A DNA stretch of 64,000 nt from an uncultured Saccharospirillum sp. (lineage in GTDB: Bacteria; Pseudomonadota; Gammaproteobacteria; Pseudomonadales; Natronospirillaceae). Of this stretch, positions 28,495-46,480 are shown piece by piece (the first letter of the stretch is position 1; every line of letters begins with the position of its first letter). A model generated the notes under the pieces. It had not been told where the DNA came from, did not search any database, and saw only the letters and a list, made by a program, of their open reading frames with translations. A program made the translations under genes and the position numbers. Location: assembly GCA_965652395.1 (NCBI GenBank), contig CBFGUW010000002.1, positions 57,583 through 121,582 on the forward strand, in the 5' to 3' direction.

Positions 28495-28846
28495 CATAAT
28501 CATCTCCAAGGGCCCGATCAACCTCGCTACCGAACCCGTGATCTTTGTTATTCTTATCTTCCATGCCGCCTCGAATGTGATCGAGTCGACAAATTGGAAG
28601 TGAGCGGCCTGCTATTATCCACAGTCGCCTCGCCACCATTCAGTTGAATTAGGGGTTGAACCCACCCGGTAGACCCGGGTGGAGAAAGGGTTGGATCACC
28701 CCATCTAGCATGACAAGGACAGCCATATGCACATAACACCCATGGACGGCGCCGCCTTTCCCCGCTGGTCTGTCACCTCTTACTCAAACACTCATGCCCA
28801 CGTGCCTCTAGGCCTTTTACAGCCTCTGCCTGCACATGCCAAGTTC

Positions 28847-28900
28847 TTACATGTAATACTTTCAATAAATTACATGTAATGATTGACAGCTTACATGTGA
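28847..28900 (+). promoter_or_regulatory. three copies of 10-bp perfect palindrome TTACATGTAA (third TTACATGTGA) at 21-23 bp spacing, overlapping a TTGACA -35 element
   Basis: Sites at 28847-56, 28870-79, 28891-900; TTGACA at 28883-88; immediately upstream of first gene of the PspA/flotillin cluster. Confidence 0.5.
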
Positions 28901-28917
28901 GAGATTAACTTGACGGC

Positions 28918-29559
28918 ATGAACACACGAAAAACATCCGCGGACTATCAACGGGAATACCGTAAACGGTTGCGCGCTCAGGGCCTGGTCAAGAAAGAAGT
29001 CTGGATTCACCCGGAGCACGCAAGGCTGCTCAGCCGCTTGGAAAAGCAGCTGCGCCAGCCGGGTTACGTCAAGGCTGACGCAGCCCCCGCTTTGAACCAT
29101 CAATCGGAGGTGAGCATGAGTAATACCCGAGTCTGGACCACCCACACCCTCTTCGAAGCCCTCAAAGAGGTCGAACCCTTTGCAAACGGCCAAGCCAGCC
29201 TGGAAATGGTGGAAGGCGCAGAGGCCAGCATCCACCTGACTATGCACGAATATGGCGACCTGCCTGTCTTCGTAACGGTTGCAGGCGAACAGATTATTGT
29301 GGATTGCCTGTTGTGGCCCGAATCCGATGTACGTGATCGAGCCTCCTTCAATGAAGAAGTGTTGACCACCCACAAACTCTTTCCGCTATCCACCATCAGC
29401 CTGGACTCTCTGCCGGATGGCGAGCGCTACTACACCATGTTCGGTGCGCTGAGCGCGTATTCGGTTCTGCCCAATATCGTCTTCGAAATCGAAGTGTTGG
29501 CAGACAACGTAATCAAAGCCACCGAAGCCTATGAACGCTTCCTCACCGTGGCCGCTTGA
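28918..29559 (+). CDS. DUF2170 (YjfI-like) family protein candidate, with 66-aa basic N-terminal extension (alternative internal start at 29116 with GGAGGTG RBS)
   Basis: C-terminal 148 aa resemble YjfI-type proteins that precede PspA-paralog YjfJ in E. coli (call from memory, moderate); N-terminal region is Arg/Lys-rich. Confidence 0.45.
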   Translation: MNTRKTSADYQREYRKRLRAQGLVKKEVWIHPEHARLLSRLEKQLRQPGYVKADAAPALNHQSEVSMSNTRVWTTHTLFEALKEVEPFANGQASLEMVEGAEASIHLTMHEYGDLPVFVTVAGEQIIVDCLLWPESDVRDRASFNEEVLTTHKLFPLSTISLDSLPDGERYYTMFGALSAYSVLPNIVFEIEVLADNVIKATEAYERFLTVAA

Positions 29560-29574
29560 AGCCGGAGACTGAAA

Positions 29575-30267
29575 ATGACTATCTGGAGCAAACTGGTAAC
29601 CGCACTTAGGGGCAATGTAAACGAACTGGGCGAGGCGGTGGTCGACAGTCAGGCCATGGTGATACTCGACCAGGAAATTCGCGATGCGGACAACGAACTG
29701 CGGCAGGCCAAATCGTCTCTGGCCGAAATTATGGCCAAGCACAAAGTGGCTCGCGACCATATCGAAACGCTGAACAGGAAAGCGGCCGAATACGAAGGTT
29801 ATGCCTTAAAGGCACTGGAAAAAAATGAAGAGACTCTGGCAGCGGAAGTCGCCGAGAAAATCGCCCAATTGGAAAACGAGACCCGGAACCAGCAGGTTGT
29901 TGTGGATAATTACGCCACCAGCGTGGCGGATTTGCGGAAAGCGGTGCAGCAGGCCGAAGGCAACCTGAAGCGATTGCGGCAGCAGGCCGATACGGTCAGA
30001 GCGACGGAGTCCGTCCAAAAAGCCCAGGCCGCCGTGGCCAGCCGCCACAGCGGCAGCAACGCCAAGCTGCGAACCGCCATGGATTCACTGGAACGCATCA
30101 AACAGAAGCAGGCGGAACGCGGGGCGCGCATGGAGGCGGCTCAAGAACTTGAACGGGAAACCCATGGCGACGAGCTGGCCACCAAGCTGAAAGCCGCCGG
30201 TATTACAGGGGAAAACCACAACGCCGCTGCTGTGCTTGAGCGATTGAAGAAACAACAACAAAAATAA
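29575..30267 (+). CDS. PspA/IM30 family protein (YjfJ-like, ESCRT-III-like superfamily)
   Basis: N-terminal MTIWSKLVTALRGNVNELGEAVVDSQAMVILDQEIRDADNEL closely parallels PspA N-terminus; long coiled coil. Confidence 0.8.
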   Translation: MTIWSKLVTALRGNVNELGEAVVDSQAMVILDQEIRDADNELRQAKSSLAEIMAKHKVARDHIETLNRKAAEYEGYALKALEKNEETLAAEVAEKIAQLENETRNQQVVVDNYATSVADLRKAVQQAEGNLKRLRQQADTVRATESVQKAQAAVASRHSGSNAKLRTAMDSLERIKQKQAERGARMEAAQELERETHGDELATKLKAAGITGENHNAAAVLERLKKQQQK

Positions 30268-30992: not shown

Positions 30993-33008
30993 ATGGATTT
31001 GTCGCTTCTCATGCCTGTGCTCGTTGGCGCCGGGGTGTTCTTCCTGGTTTTGATGGGCATACTCGCCCTGTTCAAAGCCTTCTACGTTAAAGTTCCCCAG
31101 GGTTGGGCCTTGATTGTCAACGACATGTCGTCGACGCCCAAGGTCTATTTCACCGGCGGCATGGTGTTGCCGGTCATCCACAAAAAAGAATACATGCGGG
31201 TCTCGCTCATCTCTATGGAGATAGACCGCCGCGCGAAAGACGGCCTGATCTGCGCGGACAACATGCGCGCGGACATCAATGTCGCTTTTTACCTCCGTGT
31301 CAATGAAACCGCCGAAGACGTACTGAAAGTCGCCAAAAGCATCGGCGTTGACCGGGCATCCGATAAAGACGCCGTCAACGAACTGTTCGCCGCCAAGTTC
31401 TCCGAAGCACTGAAAACCGTTGGTAAACAGATTGATTTCGTCAAACTGTTTGAAGACCGTCAGTTCTTCCGCGAGAAGATCATCGAAACCATCGGCAACG
31501 ATCTGAACGGCTATGTGCTGGAAGACGTGGCCATCGATTACCTCGAGCAAACTCCTCGAGAGTCGTTGGACCCGAACAATATTCTTGATGCCGAAGGCAT
31601 TCGCAAGATCACCGAGCTGACCGCCAAGCAAAACGTCATCACCAATGAGCTCGAACGCAACCGTGAGTTGGCCATCACCAAGAAGAACGTCGAAACCCGC
31701 GAGGCGATGCTTGAGCTTGAACGCCAGGAAGCCGATGCCACGGCGCGTCAGCAGCGTGAAGTCGAGTCCATCAAGGCACGCGAGGAAGCCGAAACGGCAC
31801 GGGTTCGCGAAGAAGAGCGCCTGCGCTCGGAAACAGCCCGTATCGAAACCGAGAAGCAGCTGCAAATTCAGGAAGAAAACCGCCTGCGCGAAATCGAAGT
31901 GGCTCAACAGAATCGGGCACGGGCTGTGGCCATCGAAGAGGAAAAAGTCACGCGTGCACGCGACCTGGAGATTGTCGCCCGCGAGAAAGAAGTGACACTG
32001 CAACAGATCGACAAAGAGAAGTCGGTCGAGATCGAACGCAAGGACATCGCCAACGTTATCCGCGAACGAGTGGCCGTAGAGAAGACCGTCGCCGAGGAAG
32101 AGGAGCGCATCAAGCAGGTGCGTGAAGTCTCCGAAGCGGAACGCCGCAAGCAGGTGCACTTACTGGCGGCCCAAGCCGAGGCGGAAGAAGCCAAGGTGAA
32201 GGAAGTGACGGCGGCCGAAGCATCGGAAATCAAAGCCAAACACCGCGCCCAGGAAATCAACACCATCGCCCAGGCGGAGTTGGAAGCGGCGGCGAAGCAG
32301 GCCGAGTCGAAGAAGAAACTGGCCGAGGGCATCGAAGCCGAACGCGCGGCTCCAGGGTTGGCCGAGGCGAAGGTGAAGCAAGTGACTGCGGACGCCTTGG
32401 AAAAAGAAGGCCTCGCGAAAGCACGCATCGAAGAGGAATCCGGTCTTGCCCAGGCAAGAGTGCTCGAAGCGCAGGCGGTCGCCAAAGAAAAAGACGGATT
32501 GGCGGAAGCGAAAGTACTGGAAGAGAAACTCCACGCCGAGGCTCAGGGCGAAGAACAAATGGGTCTGGCCCAGGCGAAGGCGGAAAAAGAGAAGGGCTTG
32601 GCCGCAGCCGAAGTCACACGCGAACGCTTCAAGGCGGAAGCCGATGGCTTGGTGGAGAAATTCAATGCCATGAACGCCATGACCGAAGTGGCGCGCGAAC
32701 ACGAAGAGTTCCGCATGAAGCTGGAGAAGGACTACGAACAGAACATGGCGTCCATCGAAGCGAACAAAGAGATCGCGGAAGCTCAGGCCCGCATGCTGGC
32801 CGAGGCGCTGCGGGAAGCGAACATCGATATCGTGGGTGGCCAGGGCGACTATTTCAACAATTTCGCCAAATCGCTTGGGCTGGGTAAAGCCGTGGAAGGG
32901 TTTTCCGCCAAAAGCCCTACCGTGCAGGCGCTGCTGAACAAATTCCTGGGGGGCAACGGTCTGGACGGGGCCATCGCCAAGCCCGAGAAGGACACACTGC
33001 CTAACTAA
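30993..33008 (+). CDS. flotillin (SPFH/band 7 family, YqiK-like) with long Glu/Ala/Lys-rich coiled-coil repeats
   Basis: N-terminal TM + SPFH domain (VKVPQGWALIVN...), periodic GLA(E/Q)AK(V/A) repeats. Confidence 0.85.
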   Translation: MDLSLLMPVLVGAGVFFLVLMGILALFKAFYVKVPQGWALIVNDMSSTPKVYFTGGMVLPVIHKKEYMRVSLISMEIDRRAKDGLICADNMRADINVAFYLRVNETAEDVLKVAKSIGVDRASDKDAVNELFAAKFSEALKTVGKQIDFVKLFEDRQFFREKIIETIGNDLNGYVLEDVAIDYLEQTPRESLDPNNILDAEGIRKITELTAKQNVITNELERNRELAITKKNVETREAMLELERQEADATARQQREVESIKAREEAETARVREEERLRSETARIETEKQLQIQEENRLREIEVAQQNRARAVAIEEEKVTRARDLEIVAREKEVTLQQIDKEKSVEIERKDIANVIRERVAVEKTVAEEEERIKQVREVSEAERRKQVHLLAAQAEAEEAKVKEVTAAEASEIKAKHRAQEINTIAQAELEAAAKQAESKKKLAEGIEAERAAPGLAEAKVKQVTADALEKEGLAKARIEEESGLAQARVLEAQAVAKEKDGLAEAKVLEEKLHAEAQGEEQMGLAQAKAEKEKGLAAAEVTRERFKAEADGLVEKFNAMNAMTEVAREHEEFRMKLEKDYEQNMASIEANKEIAEAQARMLAEALREANIDIVGGQGDYFNNFAKSLGLGKAVEGFSAKSPTVQALLNKFLGGNGLDGAIAKPEKDTLPN

Positions 33009-33026: not shown

Positions 33027-36000
33027 ATGACCACTGACCATCAGGATGTCAGCCAGCAGGAACAGGATAGCGCTATCGACAAGGCCGTCTCCGAAGGTGG
33101 CGCTTACGATGTTATTCGCAAGCGGCTGCTGGACCAGGGCCGTCAACTGGCCACCGAGGTCGAGCATCTCAATAATGCACGACTGGAGGAGTTTGGAAAC
33201 ACCGGTCAGGAAGTGATCGGTCGCATGAGAGTGCGCACCGAGAACAACTGCGTTGCCCGCGACATTGTGAGAGTCGGTGAAAACCTGCTGTTCGGCTACA
33301 ACGTTTACATCGGGCTGAAGCAGACCACCCGGATCGAAGACGTGTTCGCCCTGTTTCGACTGGTCGACCAGGGCGGCCAGTTCGAAATGGAAGCCGTTTC
33401 TCTGAAGCCCTCCTTCCTAAGCGATCCGGGTTTTATTAAAGACTTCGAAGAACTCTATACCTATTACAAACAAACCAAGCTGATTCAGTTGCTGGTGATC
33501 AACGGCAAGCTCCTGGCGGCGTTCCAGATTGGCGAGCGCGCCTCCGACATTCGTGTTTTCCGTTGGTCGGTGTCAGCGGATGGTCAGGAGGTCCGCTATA
33601 TCGATAACAGAGGCGAGCGGGATATCGCATTGCCTCCGGCTCATGATTTCGAGTGGACCGCCACCACCCGAGACGACATCGTTCATGGCAGCCAGCCTCA
33701 CGTAAATATTCTGGATACCTTGTTCGTCGAAACCCTTCAGGGTGAGCTGACCATCAAGGTTGAAAACAACACGGAAGACGGGCTTGGTCTGTATCGGGAA
33801 CCGGTGGAAGAAGCCAACCAATCGCTGACCGACGCCGAGTTCCACTACGCGCGTCTGGGCGAATTGATCTTACTGAAAGTACTGCCCTACCGGGAGGACG
33901 CACCCCGCCACTTTGTATTCAACAGCCTGACACAAAGCGTTCACCGTATCGACGCACTGGGAGAAGCTTGCCAGCAATTGCCGGAAGACCACGGCATTAT
34001 ATTCCCGGGCGGTTATTACCTGACGAACGGTGAAATGAAACAGTTTGAAAGTAACAGCCAAGGGCTTAAATTTCGCCGGGTCATCAAGTCTCCCAATGGA
34101 GAGGATGTACTCTACGTTTTTTATGAACCCGAAGAAGGCCGGGTAGAACTGTTTCCCTACAATCTGATCAACAAGGCGCTGAGCAACCCGATCGTCGGTC
34201 ATGGTTATGCCCTGGGTGAGGACGGCAAACTGGTAATCTTCACGGCCGAAGGGGAACCCACCCGGGTCCACCCCATGCAGGTGTGGCAGACGCCGTTCTT
34301 TACGGAGGAGTTCGCCAGTGCTCAGCCGCCCAGTCAAAGTTTTTATGGCCGCATCGGCAACCCGGAGCTGGTGCGAGGTATTTCGGAAATCTATTCCATC
34401 GTCCGAACGATCAATCAACAATCGGCCTCCAGCCGCCTCTACAGTGACCTGGCGCAACATTGCCGCAAGGTGTTCGATGCCTATCACTGGCTCGACACCC
34501 AAGAGTTACAGGCCGCCGCTACACTCATCAAAGAAATCGCCAACACGGCCGAGCTGGTACTGGACGAGTTTGAAAAAGTCCAAACCATTCGGGAGCAGGC
34601 GGAAACCGCCCTTCGCGACGCCAGAGCCGACCAGGCCAAATTGATTGGCCAACTGCACATCGATAGCTGGCAAAGGCCGGATCAATACGTCGATGCACTG
34701 GCTCAGCTCAGGCGTCAACGCGGCCGCCTGCTGACCATCCGCGAACTTCGCTACATGGATGTCGCCGAGGTCGATGCCCTTGAAAACGAACTGGTCACAG
34801 CCGATGATCGGGTCGCTTCCGCAACGGCCACCTTTCTGGCCGGTGAAGAAGCGCTGTCACCCTACCTCACCCGACTGAATGAAATACAGGAAGCCATCGA
34901 AGCTGCCGACACTATTGCCGAACTGAAACCGGAACTCGCCACACTGGACCAGCTTTCTGAAGGACTCGACCTGCTTTCCGAGCTCGCCGCCGGGCTAAAG
35001 GTTGAGGATGCCACCCAACATACCCGCATCATCGATTCCATAGGAGAGGTTTACGCCCTGGTAAACCAACGAAAGGCTCAGGCACGCAATAAACAACAGA
35101 ATCTGGGTGGCGCCGAAGCACGCGCTCAGTTTGCCGCTCAATTCAAGTTATTCAGCCAGTCCATCACCAACGCACTCAGCCTGGCACGCACACCCGAACA
35201 AAGTGATGAACAGCTATCCCGACTGCTGGTGCAATTGGAGGAACTGGAAGGGCAGTTTTCGGAGCACGATGAATTTCTGGGCGATATCCTGACCAAACGT
35301 GACGAAATTCATGAGTCCTTCGAGGCCCACCGCCAGCGGTTAATGGATGAACGTCATGCCCGGGCACAATCGCTATTCGATGCCGCCAGCCGCATTCTGG
35401 ACAACTTGCAGCGCCGCGCTAACAAATTCGACAAGGCCGAAGAACTGAACAGCTACTTCGCGGCCGACGCCATGGTGCTCAAGCTCACCGACCTGGCCAG
35501 GAATTTGAGAGTGCTGGACGATGTCGTCAAAGCCGACGATATCGACGCGCGTCTTAAGTCTATTAAAGAGCAGGCGATACGTGGTCTGCGTGACAAGACG
35601 GACATTTTCGAAGAAGGTGGCAAGGTCATTAAACTCGGCCCCCGCCACAAGTTCAGTGTCAATACACAAGAACCAGACCTGACCTTGCTGCCACGCGAAG
35701 ACGATTTGTACCTGCATTTAACCGGCACCGATTATTACGAAGCGCTGAATCACTCTGAGTTGAACGCCTGCCGACCCTTCTGGCATCAGACTCTTGAGTC
35801 CGAAAACGAACAGGTCTATCGCGCCGAATACCTGGCGTCCCGCATCATGGAAGCGGCCGATCGAAACCTGGAAGGGCTCGATATCGAACAGCTGGAGTAT
35901 GCCGCCAGTGACTCCAAGGCACTGCTTGAACTGGTTCGACGTTACAGCGCTCCACGCTACAAGGAAGGTTATGAAAAGGGCATCCACGACGCCGATGCGG

Positions 36001-38282
36001 CCGCCATTCTCGCACGATTAATGCCCGTCAGGGCTCAAGCCGGTTTACTTCGCGTCGCACCCAAAGCCCGGTCTCTCGCCATGCTGTTCTGGGCCGCCGG
36101 TCAGAAAGAGCAACCCCAACGGGATTGGCCACAACGCGCCCGCGCCGCCACCCACATGGCCAGACTGTTTGCTTCGCGCGGCGCCCACGATTTACTGGTG
36201 GCCGAGGCATCCAGACTCCTTACTCAATTCGTCGAGGCGCACCAACTCCCGATGACGGAGCTTGAGTGTCAACGGGCGGCGGACTATCTGATTTCAGAGT
36301 TATCGGAGGAAAGACCCTCCTTTGGCATCAGTAAATACGCTCAGAGGCTGGCGGATGAACTGCGACAAAGGATGGATCAAAACAGCTGGCGCGATTACCA
36401 AAACGCTCTAGCCCAATTGAAAGGCCAGCCGGGTCCGCGCTGGGCGCTGACCGAAGCCTGGTTATTGGCCCTGGTGCGCACCGAAGAACTTGCCGGGCTC
36501 AGAGCCTACATACCCGAGGCGGTTGCACTCGTTAACACCGAGGAACGAATCGACCTGCGCCCGTCGGAAGTCGATCTGTCTTTCGAGGTGACGGGTCTGC
36601 TCGGCCAACACAGTCGAATCAAAAACCAATGCCTGTCGCTCCGGCTTGATGACTTCATCGAACGCCTGGATCACTATCGGGAAGTCACACTGCCCGGCTA
36701 CAGGGCCTATCTTGATTTACGTGGCAAGGTGCTGCATGAAGCAAGAGAGTCCATGCGGTTGGATGAATTCAAGCCTCGGCCTCTCAGTTCTTTCGTCCGC
36801 AACAAGCTGATCAACGAAGCTTACCTGCCCATTATCGGTGACAATCTCGCCAAACAAATGGGCACCGTGGGAGACACCAAACGCACGGACCTGATGGGCC
36901 TGCTTATGATGATCTCACCGCCCGGTTACGGTAAAACCACCCTGATGGAATACGTCGCCAACCGGCTCGGGTTGATTTTCATGAAGATCAATTGCCCCTC
37001 GCTTGGTCACGATGTTCTCTCACTCGATCCGGAACAAGCACCGAATGCCACCGCACGTCAGGAGCTGAACAAACTCAACCTGGCGTTGGAAATGGGTAAC
37101 AACGTCATGTTGTATCTTGACGATATTCAACATACTCATCCAGAGTTCCTGCAAAAATTCATCTCCCTGTGCGACGGCACCCGACGCATCGAAGGCGTGT
37201 GGAAAGGCCGAACGCGGACCTACGACATGCGCGGCAAGAAATTCTGCGTGGTCATGGCCGGAAACCCCTACACCGAATCCGGCGAGGCGTTCAAAGTGCC
37301 CGACATGCTGGCCAACCGGGCGGACATTTACAACTTGGGTGATATTCTGGGCGGCATGGAAGAGCAGTTCGCACTGTCGTTTATCGAAAACTGCCTTACC
37401 TCGAACCCGGTACTGGCGCCACTCGCCACGCGCGAAATGTCGGATTTTTACAGGCTTGCCGAACTGGCCGCCGGTAATAATGTGAGCACCAACGACCTGT
37501 CGCACGACTATTCCGCCGCTGAAGTTGCGGAAATCACCGGCGTATTGAAAAAACTCTTCGTCATTCAGAATGTCGTGCTTAAAGTAAACCAGCAATACAT
37601 TCACAGCGCCGCCCAGGCGGACAAATACCGAACCGAACCGGGCTTCCGTTTGCAGGGTTCCTACCGGAACATGAACAAGATGGCCGAAAAGGTCTCGGGC
37701 ATTATGAACGACGCCGAGCTCAACCGCTTAATTGACGACCACTACCTCGGCGAAGCCCAGCTGCTGACCTCCGGTGCCGAAGAAAACCTGCTTAAACTGC
37801 GTGAAATCAGGGGCATTCTCACGGAACAGGAGACCCAGCGTTGGCAGCAAATAAAAGCCGACTTTCTGCGCAACAAAGCCATGGGTGGTGAAGACGCCGA
37901 CACCGGCAGCCGGGTCGTCGCCCAGTTGGCCGACATCGCCGCGGCATTGCAACAACCGGAAACAAAGGGAGAGCCCAATTGGCAAGCCCCGTTGGCGGCT
38001 CTTGACCAGGGGTTGAAACAAATAGCCTCGGCGCTCACCAAGGCCCAATATCAGGTGGAAGTCATCAACCAGCCGGTGCCAGGAATGGACAAAGTCCTGA
38101 ATACGCTGGCCGATACCGTGGAGAATTCCCTGATGCCGTTGGTTCACGCCATGGAGGGAAAACTCGGTATCGATCTGCGTACACACGACCGTCTGGTCTC
38201 CATCAGTCAGGAAATAAAAGAGCTTAAGCAGGAAGTGATCCGCACCACATCGGTTAAACATCGGCCGGTGGCGGATAGCTGA
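33027..38282 (+). CDS. 1751-aa multidomain protein: beta-rich N-terminal region, long alpha-helical/coiled-coil middle, C-terminal MoxR/AAA_5-type AAA+ ATPase
   Basis: Single uninterrupted ORF; Walker A SPPGYGKTT (~36921-36941), Walker B VMLYLDD (~37111-37125), sensor-1 VMAGNPY, LANRADIY; 18-nt gap after flotillin stop. Confidence 0.7.
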   Translation: MTTDHQDVSQQEQDSAIDKAVSEGGAYDVIRKRLLDQGRQLATEVEHLNNARLEEFGNTGQEVIGRMRVRTENNCVARDIVRVGENLLFGYNVYIGLKQTTRIEDVFALFRLVDQGGQFEMEAVSLKPSFLSDPGFIKDFEELYTYYKQTKLIQLLVINGKLLAAFQIGERASDIRVFRWSVSADGQEVRYIDNRGERDIALPPAHDFEWTATTRDDIVHGSQPHVNILDTLFVETLQGELTIKVENNTEDGLGLYREPVEEANQSLTDAEFHYARLGELILLKVLPYREDAPRHFVFNSLTQSVHRIDALGEACQQLPEDHGIIFPGGYYLTNGEMKQFESNSQGLKFRRVIKSPNGEDVLYVFYEPEEGRVELFPYNLINKALSNPIVGHGYALGEDGKLVIFTAEGEPTRVHPMQVWQTPFFTEEFASAQPPSQSFYGRIGNPELVRGISEIYSIVRTINQQSASSRLYSDLAQHCRKVFDAYHWLDTQELQAAATLIKEIANTAELVLDEFEKVQTIREQAETALRDARADQAKLIGQLHIDSWQRPDQYVDALAQLRRQRGRLLTIRELRYMDVAEVDALENELVTADDRVASATATFLAGEEALSPYLTRLNEIQEAIEAADTIAELKPELATLDQLSEGLDLLSELAAGLKVEDATQHTRIIDSIGEVYALVNQRKAQARNKQQNLGGAEARAQFAAQFKLFSQSITNALSLARTPEQSDEQLSRLLVQLEELEGQFSEHDEFLGDILTKRDEIHESFEAHRQRLMDERHARAQSLFDAASRILDNLQRRANKFDKAEELNSYFAADAMVLKLTDLARNLRVLDDVVKADDIDARLKSIKEQAIRGLRDKTDIFEEGGKVIKLGPRHKFSVNTQEPDLTLLPREDDLYLHLTGTDYYEALNHSELNACRPFWHQTLESENEQVYRAEYLASRIMEAADRNLEGLDIEQLEYAASDSKALLELVRRYSAPRYKEGYEKGIHDADAAAILARLMPVRAQAGLLRVAPKARSLAMLFWAAGQKEQPQRDWPQRARAATHMARLFASRGAHDLLVAEASRLLTQFVEAHQLPMTELECQRAADYLISELSEERPSFGISKYAQRLADELRQRMDQNSWRDYQNALAQLKGQPGPRWALTEAWLLALVRTEELAGLRAYIPEAVALVNTEERIDLRPSEVDLSFEVTGLLGQHSRIKNQCLSLRLDDFIERLDHYREVTLPGYRAYLDLRGKVLHEARESMRLDEFKPRPLSSFVRNKLINEAYLPIIGDNLAKQMGTVGDTKRTDLMGLLMMISPPGYGKTTLMEYVANRLGLIFMKINCPSLGHDVLSLDPEQAPNATARQELNKLNLALEMGNNVMLYLDDIQHTHPEFLQKFISLCDGTRRIEGVWKGRTRTYDMRGKKFCVVMAGNPYTESGEAFKVPDMLANRADIYNLGDILGGMEEQFALSFIENCLTSNPVLAPLATREMSDFYRLAELAAGNNVSTNDLSHDYSAAEVAEITGVLKKLFVIQNVVLKVNQQYIHSAAQADKYRTEPGFRLQGSYRNMNKMAEKVSGIMNDAELNRLIDDHYLGEAQLLTSGAEENLLKLREIRGILTEQETQRWQQIKADFLRNKAMGGEDADTGSRVVAQLADIAAALQQPETKGEPNWQAPLAALDQGLKQIASALTKAQYQVEVINQPVPGMDKVLNTLADTVENSLMPLVHAMEGKLGIDLRTHDRLVSISQEIKELKQEVIRTTSVKHRPVADS

Positions 38283-38824
38283 TGGCGAGATTACGCTCCG
38301 CTTTTATCGCCGTCGCGCTCATTTGGGTGGTTTTCTTGGCCAATGCATTCCTGCCAACAATTGAACTGCGCACTTTCGGCGTACTGCCCCGCGACCCAGA
38401 CCGCCTCTGGGCGGTTCTGACCAGCCCCTTCCTGCACGGTAACTGGCAACATCTGATCGGCAACAGCATTCCGCTGTTCATTTTCAGCTGGCTGGTGCTG
38501 CGCCGGGGGCAGCGACGCTATCTCACGGCCAGTGCCTTCATCATCATTGTGGGGGGGTTGATCCTCTGGCTGATCGGTCGCCCGGCACTTCATATTGGGG
38601 CCAGTGGCTGGGTATTCGGGCTCTGGGGGCTGATCATCGCCGATGGCTGGTATGAGCGCAGCCTGGCAGCGGTGCTGACCAGCCTGGCGGTGATCCTGCT
38701 GTACGGCGGAATGCTCTGGGGGCTGCTGCCCCAGGCCACAGTGAGCTTCGAAGCCCACCTGGGAGGCTTGGTGGCCGGTGTGATGTATTCGGCACTGAGT
38801 CATACCCGGAAACAGAAAAGATGA
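38282..38824 (+). CDS. rhomboid family intramembrane serine protease
   Basis: FLHGNWQHLIGN (TM2 motif), GASGWVFG (GxSG catalytic Ser), HLGGLVAG (catalytic His); ATG overlaps stop of upstream ATPase (ATGA... coupling). Confidence 0.75.
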   Translation: MARLRSAFIAVALIWVVFLANAFLPTIELRTFGVLPRDPDRLWAVLTSPFLHGNWQHLIGNSIPLFIFSWLVLRRGQRRYLTASAFIIIVGGLILWLIGRPALHIGASGWVFGLWGLIIADGWYERSLAAVLTSLAVILLYGGMLWGLLPQATVSFEAHLGGLVAGVMYSALSHTRKQKR

Positions 38825-42209: not shown

Positions 42210-42354
42210 TTAATCGTGGCATCCCCTGTAGCGGCTCCCGTAATTACAGGGGTTCTTCAAGCCAAATGACGGCTAATCCCGGGAAAGGTTGCTAAACTGC
42301 TGTCTAACTGTATTTGACACCCTAACTTTTTGGGAATTGTGGAGCGCTGAGCTT

Positions 42355-43305
42355 TTGGGCTTATTGTCACCGATTCGACGTAACAAACGCCAACATTGGA
42401 TTTACCTCACCGAAGAGGGCATGGGGCTGGCGGGCATTCAGGCCAATGGCGATGCCATGCCACGGCTGGAATATTGCGACTGGCTGTCCGAGCCGGATGC
42501 ATTGAACCGCCCGGGCGAACTGGCCTCTAAAGTGGCCGAGAAAGCCAGTGGCACGGTGAATCTGTTGCTGGGTGAAAGCTTCTATCAGTTATTACTGGTC
42601 GATGTTCCCGATGTCCCGGCCGAGGAAATCGAATCCGCTCTGCGACTCAAGGCGGCGGAACTCATCAGTTATGACATCGAAGAAGCGGCTATTGATGTGA
42701 TATTGCTGCCGACGGATGCCTATCGCGGCCGGTTGCGCATGGCATTCGTCGTGGCCACCCAAAAAGCGCCGTTGCGCCAATGGGCTCTCGAGCTCGCCAA
42801 GCGCGGACTGATACTGTCGGTTATCGATATCGACCAGATGCAACTGCGCAACCTCGCCATTCGCACCCAGCAGCGTCATCAGAGCGGTCTGCTCCATTTA
42901 GGGCCGACCCAGTGCCGCCTGGTGCTTCTCTACGAAAACGAGATCGTCTTGTCGCGCCAGTTCGATATAGGCTACCAAAGCCTTGGCATGGAAGGCCCCG
43001 GCGAACCGGGACTGGTGCTGGAGGGGCAGGACGATATCCAGCTTGAATCCCTGGTGCTGGAGCTACGCCGCTCGTTCGATTATTACGAATCCCAACTCGG
43101 CCTTGGCAGCATCAGCGAAGTGTCGTTGCTGGGTTGGCCCGGCGATACCAGTCTGGCGGGCTCCCTGGGTGATAAAATGGGCGTTCGCTTCCAATTGTTG
43201 ATGCCCGAAGACGTACTCCTGTTACCGGCTGAACTGGAGAGCTCCCCCCTGCCCGACCCGGTTATTCCGCTATTGGGAACCGCCTTTCGGGAGGTCAGCC
43301 CATGA
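42355..43305 (+). CDS. mshI: MSHA pilus biogenesis protein MshI (PilM-like actin-fold domain); start uncertain (TTG at 42355 chosen; ORF opens at 42289 in AT-rich leader)
   Basis: PilM-like N-terminus LLGLLSPIRRNKR...; first gene of msh-type cluster. Confidence 0.55.
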   Translation: MGLLSPIRRNKRQHWIYLTEEGMGLAGIQANGDAMPRLEYCDWLSEPDALNRPGELASKVAEKASGTVNLLLGESFYQLLLVDVPDVPAEEIESALRLKAAELISYDIEEAAIDVILLPTDAYRGRLRMAFVVATQKAPLRQWALELAKRGLILSVIDIDQMQLRNLAIRTQQRHQSGLLHLGPTQCRLVLLYENEIVLSRQFDIGYQSLGMEGPGEPGLVLEGQDDIQLESLVLELRRSFDYYESQLGLGSISEVSLLGWPGDTSLAGSLGDKMGVRFQLLMPEDVLLLPAELESSPLPDPVIPLLGTAFREVSP

Positions 43306-43925
43306 CTCGTCATATCAATCTGATGCAGCCGGACATCCTACCGGGCTTCGGGCGCTGGCAGGTTCCTTCGTTTATTGCCGCTGTCCTGGTGACACTGATC
43401 ATCAGCGGGCTCTATACCCTCTACCAATGGAACGAACGACAAGAACTGCTCGACGAAACCGCCTATTGGCAAGGCGAAGTGGTCACCAGCCAGCAGCGTC
43501 TGCAGGATTTCCAACGCGCCAATCCTTCCATGGCGAGCGAAACGGAGCTGCAAAAGGAAAACGAGACCCTGAAAACCCGGCTGAAAGAGCGTGAGTCGGC
43601 CTTGAGCGGCCTGGCCACCCAGCTGGATATCTCAGCCCAAGGGTTTTCCCAATCCCTGGCGAATCTGTCCAACTATGACCTGGACGGCATCTGGCTGACT
43701 CACATCCAATTGAGAGACAGCAGTGCCCATCTGGGCCTGGAAGGCTTTACCCGCGACCCCGGCCTGGTACCCCGCTATCTGGCACAACTCGAAGGGTCGG
43801 TATTCGACGGTTTGAGCATTCGCAACCTCAACATTCAGCAGGCAGGCGAAGAAGCGGACAACCTTTGGCGGTTCTCCATCGCCGATACCGCTGTCACCCC
43901 AACCACTGACGGAGGGGTGCGCTGA
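43302..43925 (+). CDS. MSHA biogenesis protein, PilN-like (MshI C-terminal half / MshI2)
   Basis: Single N-terminal TM, coiled coil, PilN-like periplasmic domain; overlaps upstream stop. Confidence 0.5.
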   Translation: MTRHINLMQPDILPGFGRWQVPSFIAAVLVTLIISGLYTLYQWNERQELLDETAYWQGEVVTSQQRLQDFQRANPSMASETELQKENETLKTRLKERESALSGLATQLDISAQGFSQSLANLSNYDLDGIWLTHIQLRDSSAHLGLEGFTRDPGLVPRYLAQLEGSVFDGLSIRNLNIQQAGEEADNLWRFSIADTAVTPTTDGGVR

Positions 43926-44567
43926 ATGGCCTGGACATTCCAACTGAGGCTCTGGCTCGATCGTTTCCAGCCCCGGGAACGTTTGTTAATGCTGATTTCC
44001 CTGGTACTGGTGGTGGGATTCTTGTTTCAGGCAGGAATCTGGCTAAGTGGCCTGACCCACCAGGACACCCTCGAACAACGCATTGAAACGCTGCGCAAGG
44101 AGTTCACAGCCAACCAAAACGCGCTGATCGCCTTGCAGGAAGCGATGAACAATCCACTGGCCCGAAACCTGAGCGAGCAAAACCGGGCTCTGCAAGACCA
44201 ATTGCAGGAACTCGACAATCGTATCAGCCGAGTGACCGATGTCCTGATTCCACCGGACCGGATGGTCACCCTGCTGCGCGAACTGTTAAACGAAAACGGC
44301 CTTACCCTGCAGCGCCTGGACGTCAAACCAGCGGCCAGAGTGCAAAGCAGTGAAGGCGACCCGGGGGTCATTCTCTATCGACACCGGCTGGAACTGGATT
44401 TGCAAGGCAACTACACCGCCTTGATGCAATATCTTGACGCTATCGAGGCCAAACCCTGGCAACTGTTTTGGGATGAGATCAGCATCGAAACCAAGAATTA
44501 CCCCCAATTGAACATCCGGCTGCGGGTTCATACCCTCAGCGATCAGGAGGAGTGGTTGAATGTTTAA
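43926..44567 (+). CDS. mshJ: MSHA biogenesis protein MshJ (PilO-like)
   Basis: TM + coiled coil + PilO-like domain; position in cluster. Confidence 0.55.
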   Translation: MAWTFQLRLWLDRFQPRERLLMLISLVLVVGFLFQAGIWLSGLTHQDTLEQRIETLRKEFTANQNALIALQEAMNNPLARNLSEQNRALQDQLQELDNRISRVTDVLIPPDRMVTLLRELLNENGLTLQRLDVKPAARVQSSEGDPGVILYRHRLELDLQGNYTALMQYLDAIEAKPWQLFWDEISIETKNYPQLNIRLRVHTLSDQEEWLNV

Positions 44568-44904
44568 AGCTCGCTCCTTGATCTGGGCGCTGATACTGCT
44601 GCCCTGGGTTTCGGCTACTCACGCCGACCCCATGCGACCGGACAACTATCAGTTGCCGCAGACAAACCAGGCTCCATCAATCGTCTCCGAACCCAGCCTG
44701 GTACTGAGCTCCATCTATATTCTCGACGATCAGCGCTATGCCGTGATCAACGGTCAGTGGCTGACTCTGAACGATACCATTCACAACTACCGGTTGACGG
44801 ATATCAGACCCGACCATGTTCACCTCAGACAGGGCAGCCGCCAGCGCACCCTGGAACTGCGGCAGGCGGGATCGCTATCCATCACCGAAACCGACGAGGA
44901 ATGA
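44560..44904 (+). CDS. mshK: MSHA biogenesis protein MshK (PilP-like lipoprotein)
   Basis: Signal peptide, ~110 aa, position between mshJ and secretin. Confidence 0.5.
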   Translation: MFKARSLIWALILLPWVSATHADPMRPDNYQLPQTNQAPSIVSEPSLVLSSIYILDDQRYAVINGQWLTLNDTIHNYRLTDIRPDHVHLRQGSRQRTLELRQAGSLSITETDEE

Positions 44905-44920
44905 CCTTGTGACAGCCCGT

Positions 44921-46480
44921 ATGCCCTCGGCCATCGTCAAACCGCTGTTCGTCCTGGGGGGAATCGTCCTCACCGGCTTGGTGGGATGCGCTTCCGTTCC
45001 CGACCAACCGGATGAAGTCCCCGATTTTGATGCCCGCGCCGCCCTGGCCGAAGAACGCCCGAATGCGGTTCCGAATCCACGGCCGGCCACACCGGTCAGC
45101 GCGCCCTCCGCGCTGGAAAGCGATCTGCTGGATTTCAGCCAGGCGCCCCGCACCGCCAAGCGGTTCGATGTGCAGGCCCAGAACGTTCCATTGCAACGAT
45201 TCTTCGCCGACCTCGGCCAAACTGAAGGCATCAACGTTCTGGTGGACCCTACGATCAATGGGAGCATCAGCCTGAACATGCGGTCGGTTACGATTGATCA
45301 GGTCATGAATGCCATACGCGATCTCTATGGATACGATTACCGCCGTACGGACTACGGCTACCGAGTGCTACCCAACCAGATCCAGACCCGGATTTACCAT
45401 TTGAACTACCTGAATGTATCGCGTTCGGGTCGTTCCGATACCACCGTCAGTGGCGGCCAGATTGTTGCTTCTGAAAGCGGCAGTAACGAAACCAGCAGCG
45501 TTTCCACCGAATACAGCGCGGATTTCTGGCAGGGTATGGAAACCACTGTTCTGGGCCTGCTTGAAGATGAACCGGGCCGCCAGGTCGTGGTCAACCCGCA
45601 GTCCGGGCTGCTGGTTGTACGCGCCACGCCCCGTGAACACGAGACAGTCGCCCGGTTTCTGGAAGATGCCGAAGGCAGCCTGCAAAAGCAGGTAGTGATT
45701 GAAGCCAAAGTGGTTGAGGTGACTCTTAGCAACGAGTTCAGGGCCGGTATCAATTGGAACACCTTTGCCAACGATCTGAGCCAGGCCTCCTCTGAAACCG
45801 GTGGCATCCTCAGTGGTAACGCCCTCTCGGGTGTTGGTGGCATTGGCGGTGTCTTCAGCCTGAGCATTGCCAGTGGCGATTTCGCCGCCATGTTGCAGTT
45901 GTTGTCTCACCAAGGCGATGTTCAGGTGCTCTCCAGCCCTCGGGTTTCCACCGTAAATAATCAGAAAGCTGTGATTAAGGTCGGTACCGATGAATTCTTC
46001 GTTACCGAAGTGACCTCACGAGTGGAGGACGAGGATACGGGAGAGGCCACGCCCGAATTCGTGTTATCCCCTTTCTTCTCTGGTATCGCGCTTGACGTTA
46101 CCCCTCAGATCAGTGCTGAAGACAACGTAATCCTGCATGTTCGCCCCTCAGTGACCGAAGTGACCGAAAGCACCAAGGTGATCAATGTAGGCGGCGCCAC
46201 CTACAACCTGCCGCTGGCCCTGTCTAACATCCGGGAAACAGACAGCATTATTCGGGCGTCCAGCGGCCAGATCGTCGTCATCGGCGGGCTGCTGTCCCAG
46301 AAAAACGATACCTCGGCCACCGGCCTGCCCTGGCTCTCCCAGGTGCCGGGTTTGAAATTCCTGTTCGGTCAACAGCGGCAGGCCCGCAGCAAGAGCGAAC
46401 TGGTGATCCTGTTGAAGCCGATCGTCTACGACGAAGGCACCACCCTGAACGACCTGGACCAGGTCCTCAAACGGATGTAA
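44921..46480 (+). CDS. mshL: MSHA secretin MshL (type II/IV secretion secretin family lipoprotein)
   Basis: Lipobox LVGC; secretin C-domain (VIKVGTDEFF..., LLSSPRV, VVIGGL); alternative GTG start 44909. Confidence 0.8.
   Translation: MPSAIVKPLFVLGGIVLTGLVGCASVPDQPDEVPDFDARAALAEERPNAVPNPRPATPVSAPSALESDLLDFSQAPRTAKRFDVQAQNVPLQRFFADLGQTEGINVLVDPTINGSISLNMRSVTIDQVMNAIRDLYGYDYRRTDYGYRVLPNQIQTRIYHLNYLNVSRSGRSDTTVSGGQIVASESGSNETSSVSTEYSADFWQGMETTVLGLLEDEPGRQVVVNPQSGLLVVRATPREHETVARFLEDAEGSLQKQVVIEAKVVEVTLSNEFRAGINWNTFANDLSQASSETGGILSGNALSGVGGIGGVFSLSIASGDFAAMLQLLSHQGDVQVLSSPRVSTVNNQKAVIKVGTDEFFVTEVTSRVEDEDTGEATPEFVLSPFFSGIALDVTPQISAEDNVILHVRPSVTEVTESTKVINVGGATYNLPLALSNIRETDSIIRASSGQIVVIGGLLSQKNDTSATGLPWLSQVPGLKFLFGQQRQARSKSELVILLKPIVYDEGTTLNDLDQVLKRM

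Follow-up and report, generated by a model that had tools for sequence, protein, structure and literature searches.

In Pseudomonas aeruginosa, the genes PA14_16140-16200 form a single operon, bacABCDEF, as determined by reverse transcription polymerase chain reaction. Mutation of bacA raises BacB to BacF 6- to 13-fold, and a sigma-54 promoter has been proposed for the operon (Wallart et al., 2024; PMC10948618). The same work named the gene bacE and left the protein itself outside its analysis. The ATPase and its operon have also been described by comparative genomics, where a role in membrane dynamics was proposed (Ravi et al., 2024; PMC11237479). The genes PA3728-PA3732 are jointly induced on phage infection (PMC12041424), and their levels also go up together in a separate proteome (PMC13637947). 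Deletion of the flotillin gene PaFlo3 (PA14_16180) results in only about 20% less biofilm (PMC13086221). A 2025 review describes bacteria as being without a Vps4-like partner of PspA (PMC7619361), and a search of the literature found no biochemical or structural study of BacE. The question at stake is how bacteria build and recycle flotillin cages and PspA polymers and couple them to energy, and the BacE family is the obvious candidate for an energy-consuming partner of these scaffolds. The family occurs in several phyla, is always adjacent to flotillin, and in P. aeruginosa belongs to an operon tied to biofilm, virulence, and phage response. Here we describe the corresponding gene in a 64,000-nucleotide stretch of contig CBFGUW010000002.1 from an uncultured Saccharospirillum sp. 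(the window), an open reading frame (ORF) at 33027..38282 on the + strand.

Judged by its sequence, this ORF is an orthologue of P. aeruginosa BacE (PA3728/PA14_16190). The BacE protein of Pseudomonas paraeruginosa (locus L029) is 59% identical over residues 17-1733, and the gene order BacA-BacB-BacC-BacD-BacE is common to both loci. The sixth gene of the P. paraeruginosa locus encodes a PLD-type hydrolase, whereas here its place is taken by a rhomboid gene and no PLD gene follows; many Pseudomonas loci carry both. The system described by Ravi et al. (PMC11237479) has the architecture and operon found here, including an optional PLD gene and a short flotillin-YqiJ-ATPase form, and shows no substantive difference from this one. 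The ATPase family, its architecture, and its link to flotillin and PspA are already published (PMC11237479; PMC10948618). What is added beyond PMC11237479 is the placement of the ATPase in the AAA_5 group, the Asp-Asp form of its Walker B motif, a conserved loop and HD-containing motifs, the apparent coupling of the rhomboid gene, and a candidate operator.

The ORF begins with ATG and runs for 1751 codons with zero internal stops. A ribosome-binding site (GGAGA) lies about 8 nucleotides 5' of the start, the gap to the stop of the preceding gene is 18 nucleotides, and the base composition is like that of the surrounding DNA. A protein search returned at least 5,204 relatives, the best 120 of which have lengths of 1749-1882 residues and align to 98-100% of the query with 58-82% identity. 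The initial annotation had taken the ORF as a single giant polypeptide and had raised a fusion or frameshift artefact as the finding that would undo this; the polypeptide is real, and an artefact is ruled out by the full-length architecture, which is conserved in more than 5,000 homologues and across genomes. Where relatives are named, they are called 'DNA repair ATPase', 'AAA family ATPase', or 'MoxR-like ATPase', the kind of generic repair label that had been anticipated. A genome scan places relatives in at least 572 species, the majority of them Gammaproteobacteria, with Zetaproteobacteria, Lampropedia, and Longimicrobium also among the matches listed. In plasmid records, a tblastn search added relatives from Deinococcus, Streptomyces, Nonomuraea, and Hymenobacter, whose alignments span more than 90% of the length with an identity of 42-50%. 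The family ranges over Proteobacteria, Bacteroidota, Actinomycetota, and Deinococcota. A scan for transmembrane segments found none in the BacE homologue; since all its hydrophobic stretches stay below transmembrane level, the protein is predicted to be soluble and cytoplasmic.

Neighbours were counted in 80 related genome loci (L001-L080), a locus being informative where it had enough flanking DNA. A flotillin gene lies directly 5' of the ATPase gene in all 77 informative loci, and a gene for a YqiJ-like membrane protein is present in 73 of 73. BacA (50/80) and PspA (49/80) genes are less constant, as are the genes found 3' of the ATPase gene, a rhomboid gene in 32 of the 80 loci and a PLD-type (HKD) gene in 28, often after the rhomboid gene. 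The link to flotillin and PspA first drawn from this locus, where both genes are 5' of the ATPase gene, is borne out by these counts. Annotated records agree, and the pairing extends to Bacteroidota, Actinomycetota, and a Pseudomonas megaplasmid. In Hymenobacter the order is 'chaperone Tir', PspA, DUF1449, hypothetical protein, and 'DNA repair ATPase', and in a Streptomyces record flotillin is followed by the ATPase. On the 425-kb Pseudomonas megaplasmid pQBR103 (NC_009444.1, 86410-103626; L081), an SPFH-ATPase pair stands directly after DUF2491, DUF350, DUF1190, and glutathionylspermidine-synthase-type genes and a rhomboid gene. This polyamine-type set is the other Psp-associated set of Ravi et al. 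(PMC11237479).

The conservation peak of the protein lies in its ATPase module: homologues with an overall identity of about 60% reach about 93% across residues 1251-1450. Pfam assigns AAA, AAA_5, and AAA_22 to residues ~1291-1416. In an AlphaFold 2 (AF2) model of residues 1151-1751 (predicted local distance difference test, pLDDT, of 71), a long helix (1207-1242) is followed by an alpha/beta ATPase core, a helical lid, and a helical tail. The ATPase had been placed in the last ~300 residues, but it occupies about residues 1250-1600 and the helical tail follows it. All four motifs quoted for it are present and conserved across the family: Walker A SPPGYGKTT at residues 1297-1305, which conforms to GxxGxGK[ST] (PPGYGKTT, 1298-1305), Walker B LYLDD at 1362-1366 (37110-37124), VMAGNPY at 1409-1415, and LANRADIY at 1428-1435. 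Conservation was assessed in 36 close homologues and in 67 diverse full-length sequences at 32-56% identity; G1300, K1303, T1304, D1365, D1366, N1413, and R1431 are invariant in the former and at least 97% conserved in the latter. The acidic pair of Walker B, D1365-D1366, is Asp-Asp and not Asp-Glu in every member examined, which makes the catalytic residue atypical, and an invariant I-Q-H follows it. The sensor-1 residue N1413 (GNPYT) comes after a modelled strand (1406-1410), R1431 is by its position a putative arginine finger, and a lid motif, QGSYRxM (1543-1549), is conserved in the 67 diverse sequences.

The AAA_5 profile (PF07728) matches 38 of 38 family members (best E-value 9e-9), scoring 24.3-27.3 bits against a gathering threshold of 22 over profile positions 2-125 of 139. 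The closest solved folds of the module are those of NorQ and CbbQ, then midasin and McrB of the AAA_5 group, and all share with it the module fold, the AAA_5 profile, and a beta-hairpin before strand 4, modelled here at residues 1387-1400 between helix 3 and strand 4. Placement nearest to this group is supported. The earlier description as AAA_5/MoxR-like stands in its first half, and 'MoxR' applies in a loose class sense only: the profile of MoxR proper, AAA_3 (PF07726), matches 12 of the 38 members with a best E-value of 0.024, below threshold, and MoxR proper is rejected on this ground and on the lack of a VWA neighbour within ~10 kb in the window and in three annotated loci. The helix-2 insert region (1323-1356) is modelled as a loop and a helix without a hairpin; we take this segment to be equal in length to that of CbbQ, and the 'NP' of sensor 1 and the downstream Arg presumably line up with the CbbQ pattern. 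NorQ and CbbQ are ATPases of ~270 residues with a VWA/MIDAS partner (NorD and CbbO, respectively), whereas here a single module with an Asp-Asp Walker B ends an arm of ~1200 residues. Midasin carries six AAA modules in one chain, and McrB is a GTPase with McrC as its partner. A dynein/midasin-type multi-module chain is rejected here as the protein has a single P-loop. Homology to Vps4 is likewise rejected, for the classical AAA profile (PF00004) matches only positions 2-72 of 131, around the P-loop, and the Pfam scan found no MIT domain. No NCBIfam model matches the ATPase, and PDB sequence searches, run with the whole protein and with separate profiles for the AAA module, the mid-domain, and the N-domain, yielded matches at the level of the P-loop (~35 residues) or nothing.

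At the other end of the protein, the initial annotation had described ~450 beta-rich residues with no recognisable motif. The beta-rich character is confirmed, but the region is covered by the Pfam domain DUF3686. An AF2 model of residues 1-1200 built from 105 sequences (mean pLDDT 78) has a helix at 26-56 and then ~24 strands across residues 62-421, so that the domain is modelled as an N-terminal helix with a propeller-like beta region of six or seven blades. The fold search proposed for this region, carried out with Foldseek against the PDB, returned the clathrin heavy-chain terminal domain plus linker, nucleoporins, and Elp1, along with other propeller-containing proteins (prolyl oligopeptidases, sialidase, PON1, and LGI1). 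These matches have probabilities of 0.9-1.0 but E-values of 1e-5 to 1e-3, template-modelling scores (TM-scores) of 0.04-0.3, and large root-mean-square deviations. At the level of fold only, the model supports DUF3686 as a putative beta-propeller, which agrees with Ravi et al. (PMC11237479). Searched alone, the N-domain finds 740 clusters at 50% identity. The longest matches, of 1590-2036 residues, are seemingly complete; the shorter ones may be fragments, and the domain appears from these lengths to be essentially confined to the BacE architecture. Its most conserved stretch is the loop LPEDHGIIFPGGYYL at residues 318-332 (33978-34022), in which L318, P319, G323, and G329 are kept in the 67 diverse sequences. 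The loop lies inside a segment (310-345) that AF2 leaves disordered (pLDDT ~31), and it may bind a partner or touch the membrane.

Between propeller and ATPase, residues 480-1150 had been predicted as long helices or coiled coil, which is roughly correct. Single helices of up to 58 residues make up a stalk (427-857), but a low-confidence linker then leads to a three-stranded element and a globular helical domain. The globular domain, for which no PDB sequence match and no known family were found, bears a G985-x-H987-D988-x-D990 motif (residues 985-991; 35979-35999) at the start of a helix. This motif is conserved down to 32% identity, as are E926, R932, E1164, and H1195.

The reading we favour, tentatively and short of calling it probable, is that the BacE orthologue is an ATP-driven remodeller of a flotillin/PspA membrane-stress scaffold. 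The C-terminal AAA+ modules would assemble into a ring, as is assumed from the behaviour of the AAA+ family, and the N-terminal arms of ~1200 residues would extend from it. Through their propellers, the arms would contact the flotillin (BacD/BacC) assembly from its cytoplasmic side and, where PspA is present, might also dock on PspA polymers. Binding and hydrolysis of ATP would remodel, recycle, or dismantle the scaffolds during or after membrane stress, and the co-transcribed rhomboid or PLD protein would work at these sites too, with proteins or lipids as its targets. The SPFH assembly is more likely than PspA to be the primary client, because the SPFH gene is always present and PspA is found in ~70% of loci. 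BacE may thus act mechanochemically, as first proposed. Vps4 with ESCRT-III and FtsH with HflK/C offer a possible functional analogy, in which an AAA+ protein is encoded or acts together with an SPFH cage and a polymer of the PspA/ESCRT-III-like kind. Unlike Vps4 and FtsH, BacE lacks an MIT domain, a protease domain, and a transmembrane anchor; it belongs to another AAA clade and is homologous to them in the AAA+ fold only.

Several points weigh against a remodelling motor. The contact of BacE with flotillin or PspA is proposed from gene context, and the ring is an assumption. With Asp-Asp in place of Asp-Glu in every Walker B motif, hydrolysis may be slow, and BacE might be a nucleotide switch and not a motor. 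A VWA/MIDAS partner, normally required by the known relatives in this AAA class, was not found here. In addition, the mild phenotype of the PaFlo3 deletion (PMC13086221) suggests that the physiological role of the system is subtle or conditional. In a wider and more doubtful extension of the remodelling proposal, BacE-type proteins could be the missing machines that dismantle or reshape SPFH cages and PspA polymers. They would be the counterpart of Vps4 on another AAA+ clade, with the propeller as client adaptor and the tail as a PspA-specific add-on.

The role of the C-terminal tail bears on an unlikely alternative, in which the task of BacE is specifically to disassemble PspA, making the ATPase functionally analogous to Vps4, with flotillin only as its membrane platform. 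The last ~100 residues of the tail are absent from over half of the 67 diverse homologues, and of the 43 loci with PspA, 38 keep the tail end (the last ~50-100 residues), compared with 11 of the 27 that lack PspA (Fisher p = 4e-5, a value that ignores shared ancestry). Since the loci are phylogenetically clustered, this is weak evidence that the tail might be a PspA-linked add-on. The alternative also draws on the presence of PspA in the operon, both here and in the other loci counted above, and on the review that knows of no Vps4-like partner of bacterial PspA (PMC7619361). Against it, ~30% of informative loci lack PspA yet retain flotillin and the ATPase, the MIT domain is missing, and the AAA module falls outside the classical Vps4 clade.

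The propeller and the Walker B motif can also be read together as a structural coat or tether, similar to clathrin or nucleoporins, in which the AAA+ module serves as a slow nucleotide-controlled switch of assembly. The better Foldseek matches (clathrin, nucleoporins, Elp1) fit such a coat, as do the invariant Asp-Asp pair and the ~70% of the protein that is non-ATPase scaffold. The low TM-scores and large deviations, however, make these matches generic fold support only, and an AAA core that is the most conserved part of the protein argues for a demanding catalytic role. We regard a coat as distinctly unlikely.

It is improbable, in turn, that BacE is a maturation chaperone of the MoxR/CbbQ/NorQ type, inserting a cofactor or activating a membrane enzyme with a VWA/MIDAS partner encoded elsewhere. 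Its nearest solved folds and its AAA_5 match are those expected of such a chaperone, but the AAA_3 profile is unmatched above threshold. No VWA domain was found in the ATPase or in the 16 neighbouring proteins scanned with Pfam, ~10 kb either side in the window, which upholds the initial observation that a VWA neighbour is missing, and no VWA gene is present in three annotated loci that were inspected. The 80 genome loci were checked for homologues of the window genes and for PLD, and within that search the recurrent neighbours are BacA-D, rhomboid, and PLD.

Phage induction of PA3728-PA3732 (PMC12041424) raises the further idea of an anti-phage or abortive-infection module, which the recurrent PLD-type (HKD) gene and the copy on megaplasmid pQBR103 would also suit. 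This idea is very improbable: Psp systems are classically induced by phage, the order of the genes holds across phyla in a context of envelope stress, and PADLOC gave no match for BacA, BacC, BacD, BacE, or the rhomboid protein, in a scan that did not include BacB/PspA. Weakest of all, the public label of DNA repair ATPase is hardly credible and is unsupported, as it has behind it only the names in source records and the misleading Pfam text for DUF3686 ('ATPase involved in DNA repair'), while Pfam, NCBIfam, and PDB searches found no nuclease, helicase, or DNA-binding domain, the gene has membrane-stress neighbours in every locus, and DUF3686 is mentioned in no paper of the library searched.

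Table 1. Features of the bac-type locus, in window coordinates.
Feature	Position	Strand	Basis
Three TTACATGTAA-like palindromes (28847-28856, 28870-28879, 28891-28900)	28847..28900	+	Sequence read
BacA homologue, DUF2170/CesT-like domain after N-terminal ~69 residues	28918..29559	+	Pfam DUF2170, E 2e-51
BacB homologue, PspA/IM30 (ESCRT-III-like), YjfJ type	29575..30267	+	Pfam PspA_IM30, E 9e-50
BacC homologue, membrane protein, 3-4 transmembrane segments, soluble C-terminal domain of ~80 residues	30331..30969	+	Transmembrane scan
BacD homologue, flotillin-like: N-terminal transmembrane segment, SPFH/Band-7, long Glu/Ala-rich helical region	30993..33008	+	
BacE homologue, 1751-residue ATPase	33027..38282 (including stop)	+	ORF read, homologue coverage
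DUF3686 domain, residues 41-487	33147..34487	+	Pfam, E 2e-200; AF2 secondary structure; Foldseek
Helical stalk, residues 427-857, containing DUF7902 (608-691)	34305..35597	+	AF2; Pfam DUF7902, E 4e-25
Small beta element (885-907) and globular helical domain (932-1171, pLDDT ~90)	35679..36539	+	AF2
AAA+ module, residues ~1250-1600	36774..37826	+	Pfam, AF2, conservation
Helical C-terminal tail, residues 1601-1751	37827..38279	+	AF2, homologue alignment
Rhomboid-family intramembrane protease	38282..38824	+	Pfam Rhomboid, E 1e-26

The remaining genes form a tightly spaced operon of the bacABCDE type, with BacA, PspA, a YqiJ-like membrane protein, and an SPFH/flotillin protein preceding the ATPase (Table 1). 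The BacC homologue has zero Pfam matches even at an E-value of 10. It is considered YqiJ/DUF1449-like by position, and the Hymenobacter gene in the same place is annotated DUF1449. The BacD homologue, with one transmembrane segment in the scan, likewise gave no match to Pfam at full length even at an E-value of 10; Band_7 was recovered (E-value 1.4e-6, 28.9 bits against a gathering threshold of 23.6) only with residues 1-260 scanned alone. The Glu/Ala-rich region probably trips the bias filter of HMMER, and automated annotation may overlook BacD-like genes for the same reason. On the 3' side, the final base of the ATPase stop codon doubles as the first base of the rhomboid ATG (TGATG, 38280-38284), an overlap which suggests that the two genes are translationally coupled.

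The BacA homologue scores 317 bits against the NCBIfam model 'biofilm formation regulator BacA', whose equivalog cutoff is 300. The structure 8Q8O aligns with its residues 70-211 only. Residues 1-69 (28918-29124) are conserved, align in 46 of 49 loci, and lie inside the NCBIfam model, but the crystal structure 8Q8O does not contain them. The TTACATGTAA-like palindromes lie 20-70 nucleotides 5' of the bacA-like start, and an ACATGT pair with a spacing of 20-27 nucleotides recurs at about -50 and -28 before bacA in 38 of 49 related loci, P. paraeruginosa among them. The palindromes are a candidate operator of the bac operon, and a conserved operator may explain the reported repressor-like effect of BacA. 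The N-terminal ~69 residues of BacA might serve as the DNA-binding region through which BacA represses its own operon at these palindromes, which would fit the derepression of BacB-F in the bacA mutant (PMC10948618). Unlike the P. aeruginosa operon, for which sigma-54 control was proposed (PMC10948618), the region 5' of bacA has no consensus of that type: no TGGCAC-N5-TTGCW site with up to 2 mismatches occurs in 28522-28917, window-wide counts are below chance, and a sigma-70 scan 5' of bacA gave nothing.

Farther along the window, 3' of ubiH/ubiF-like and trmL-like genes, positions 42289-46480 hold a pilus/secretion cluster with PilN-like and secretin genes, which appears to be unrelated to the ATPase operon.

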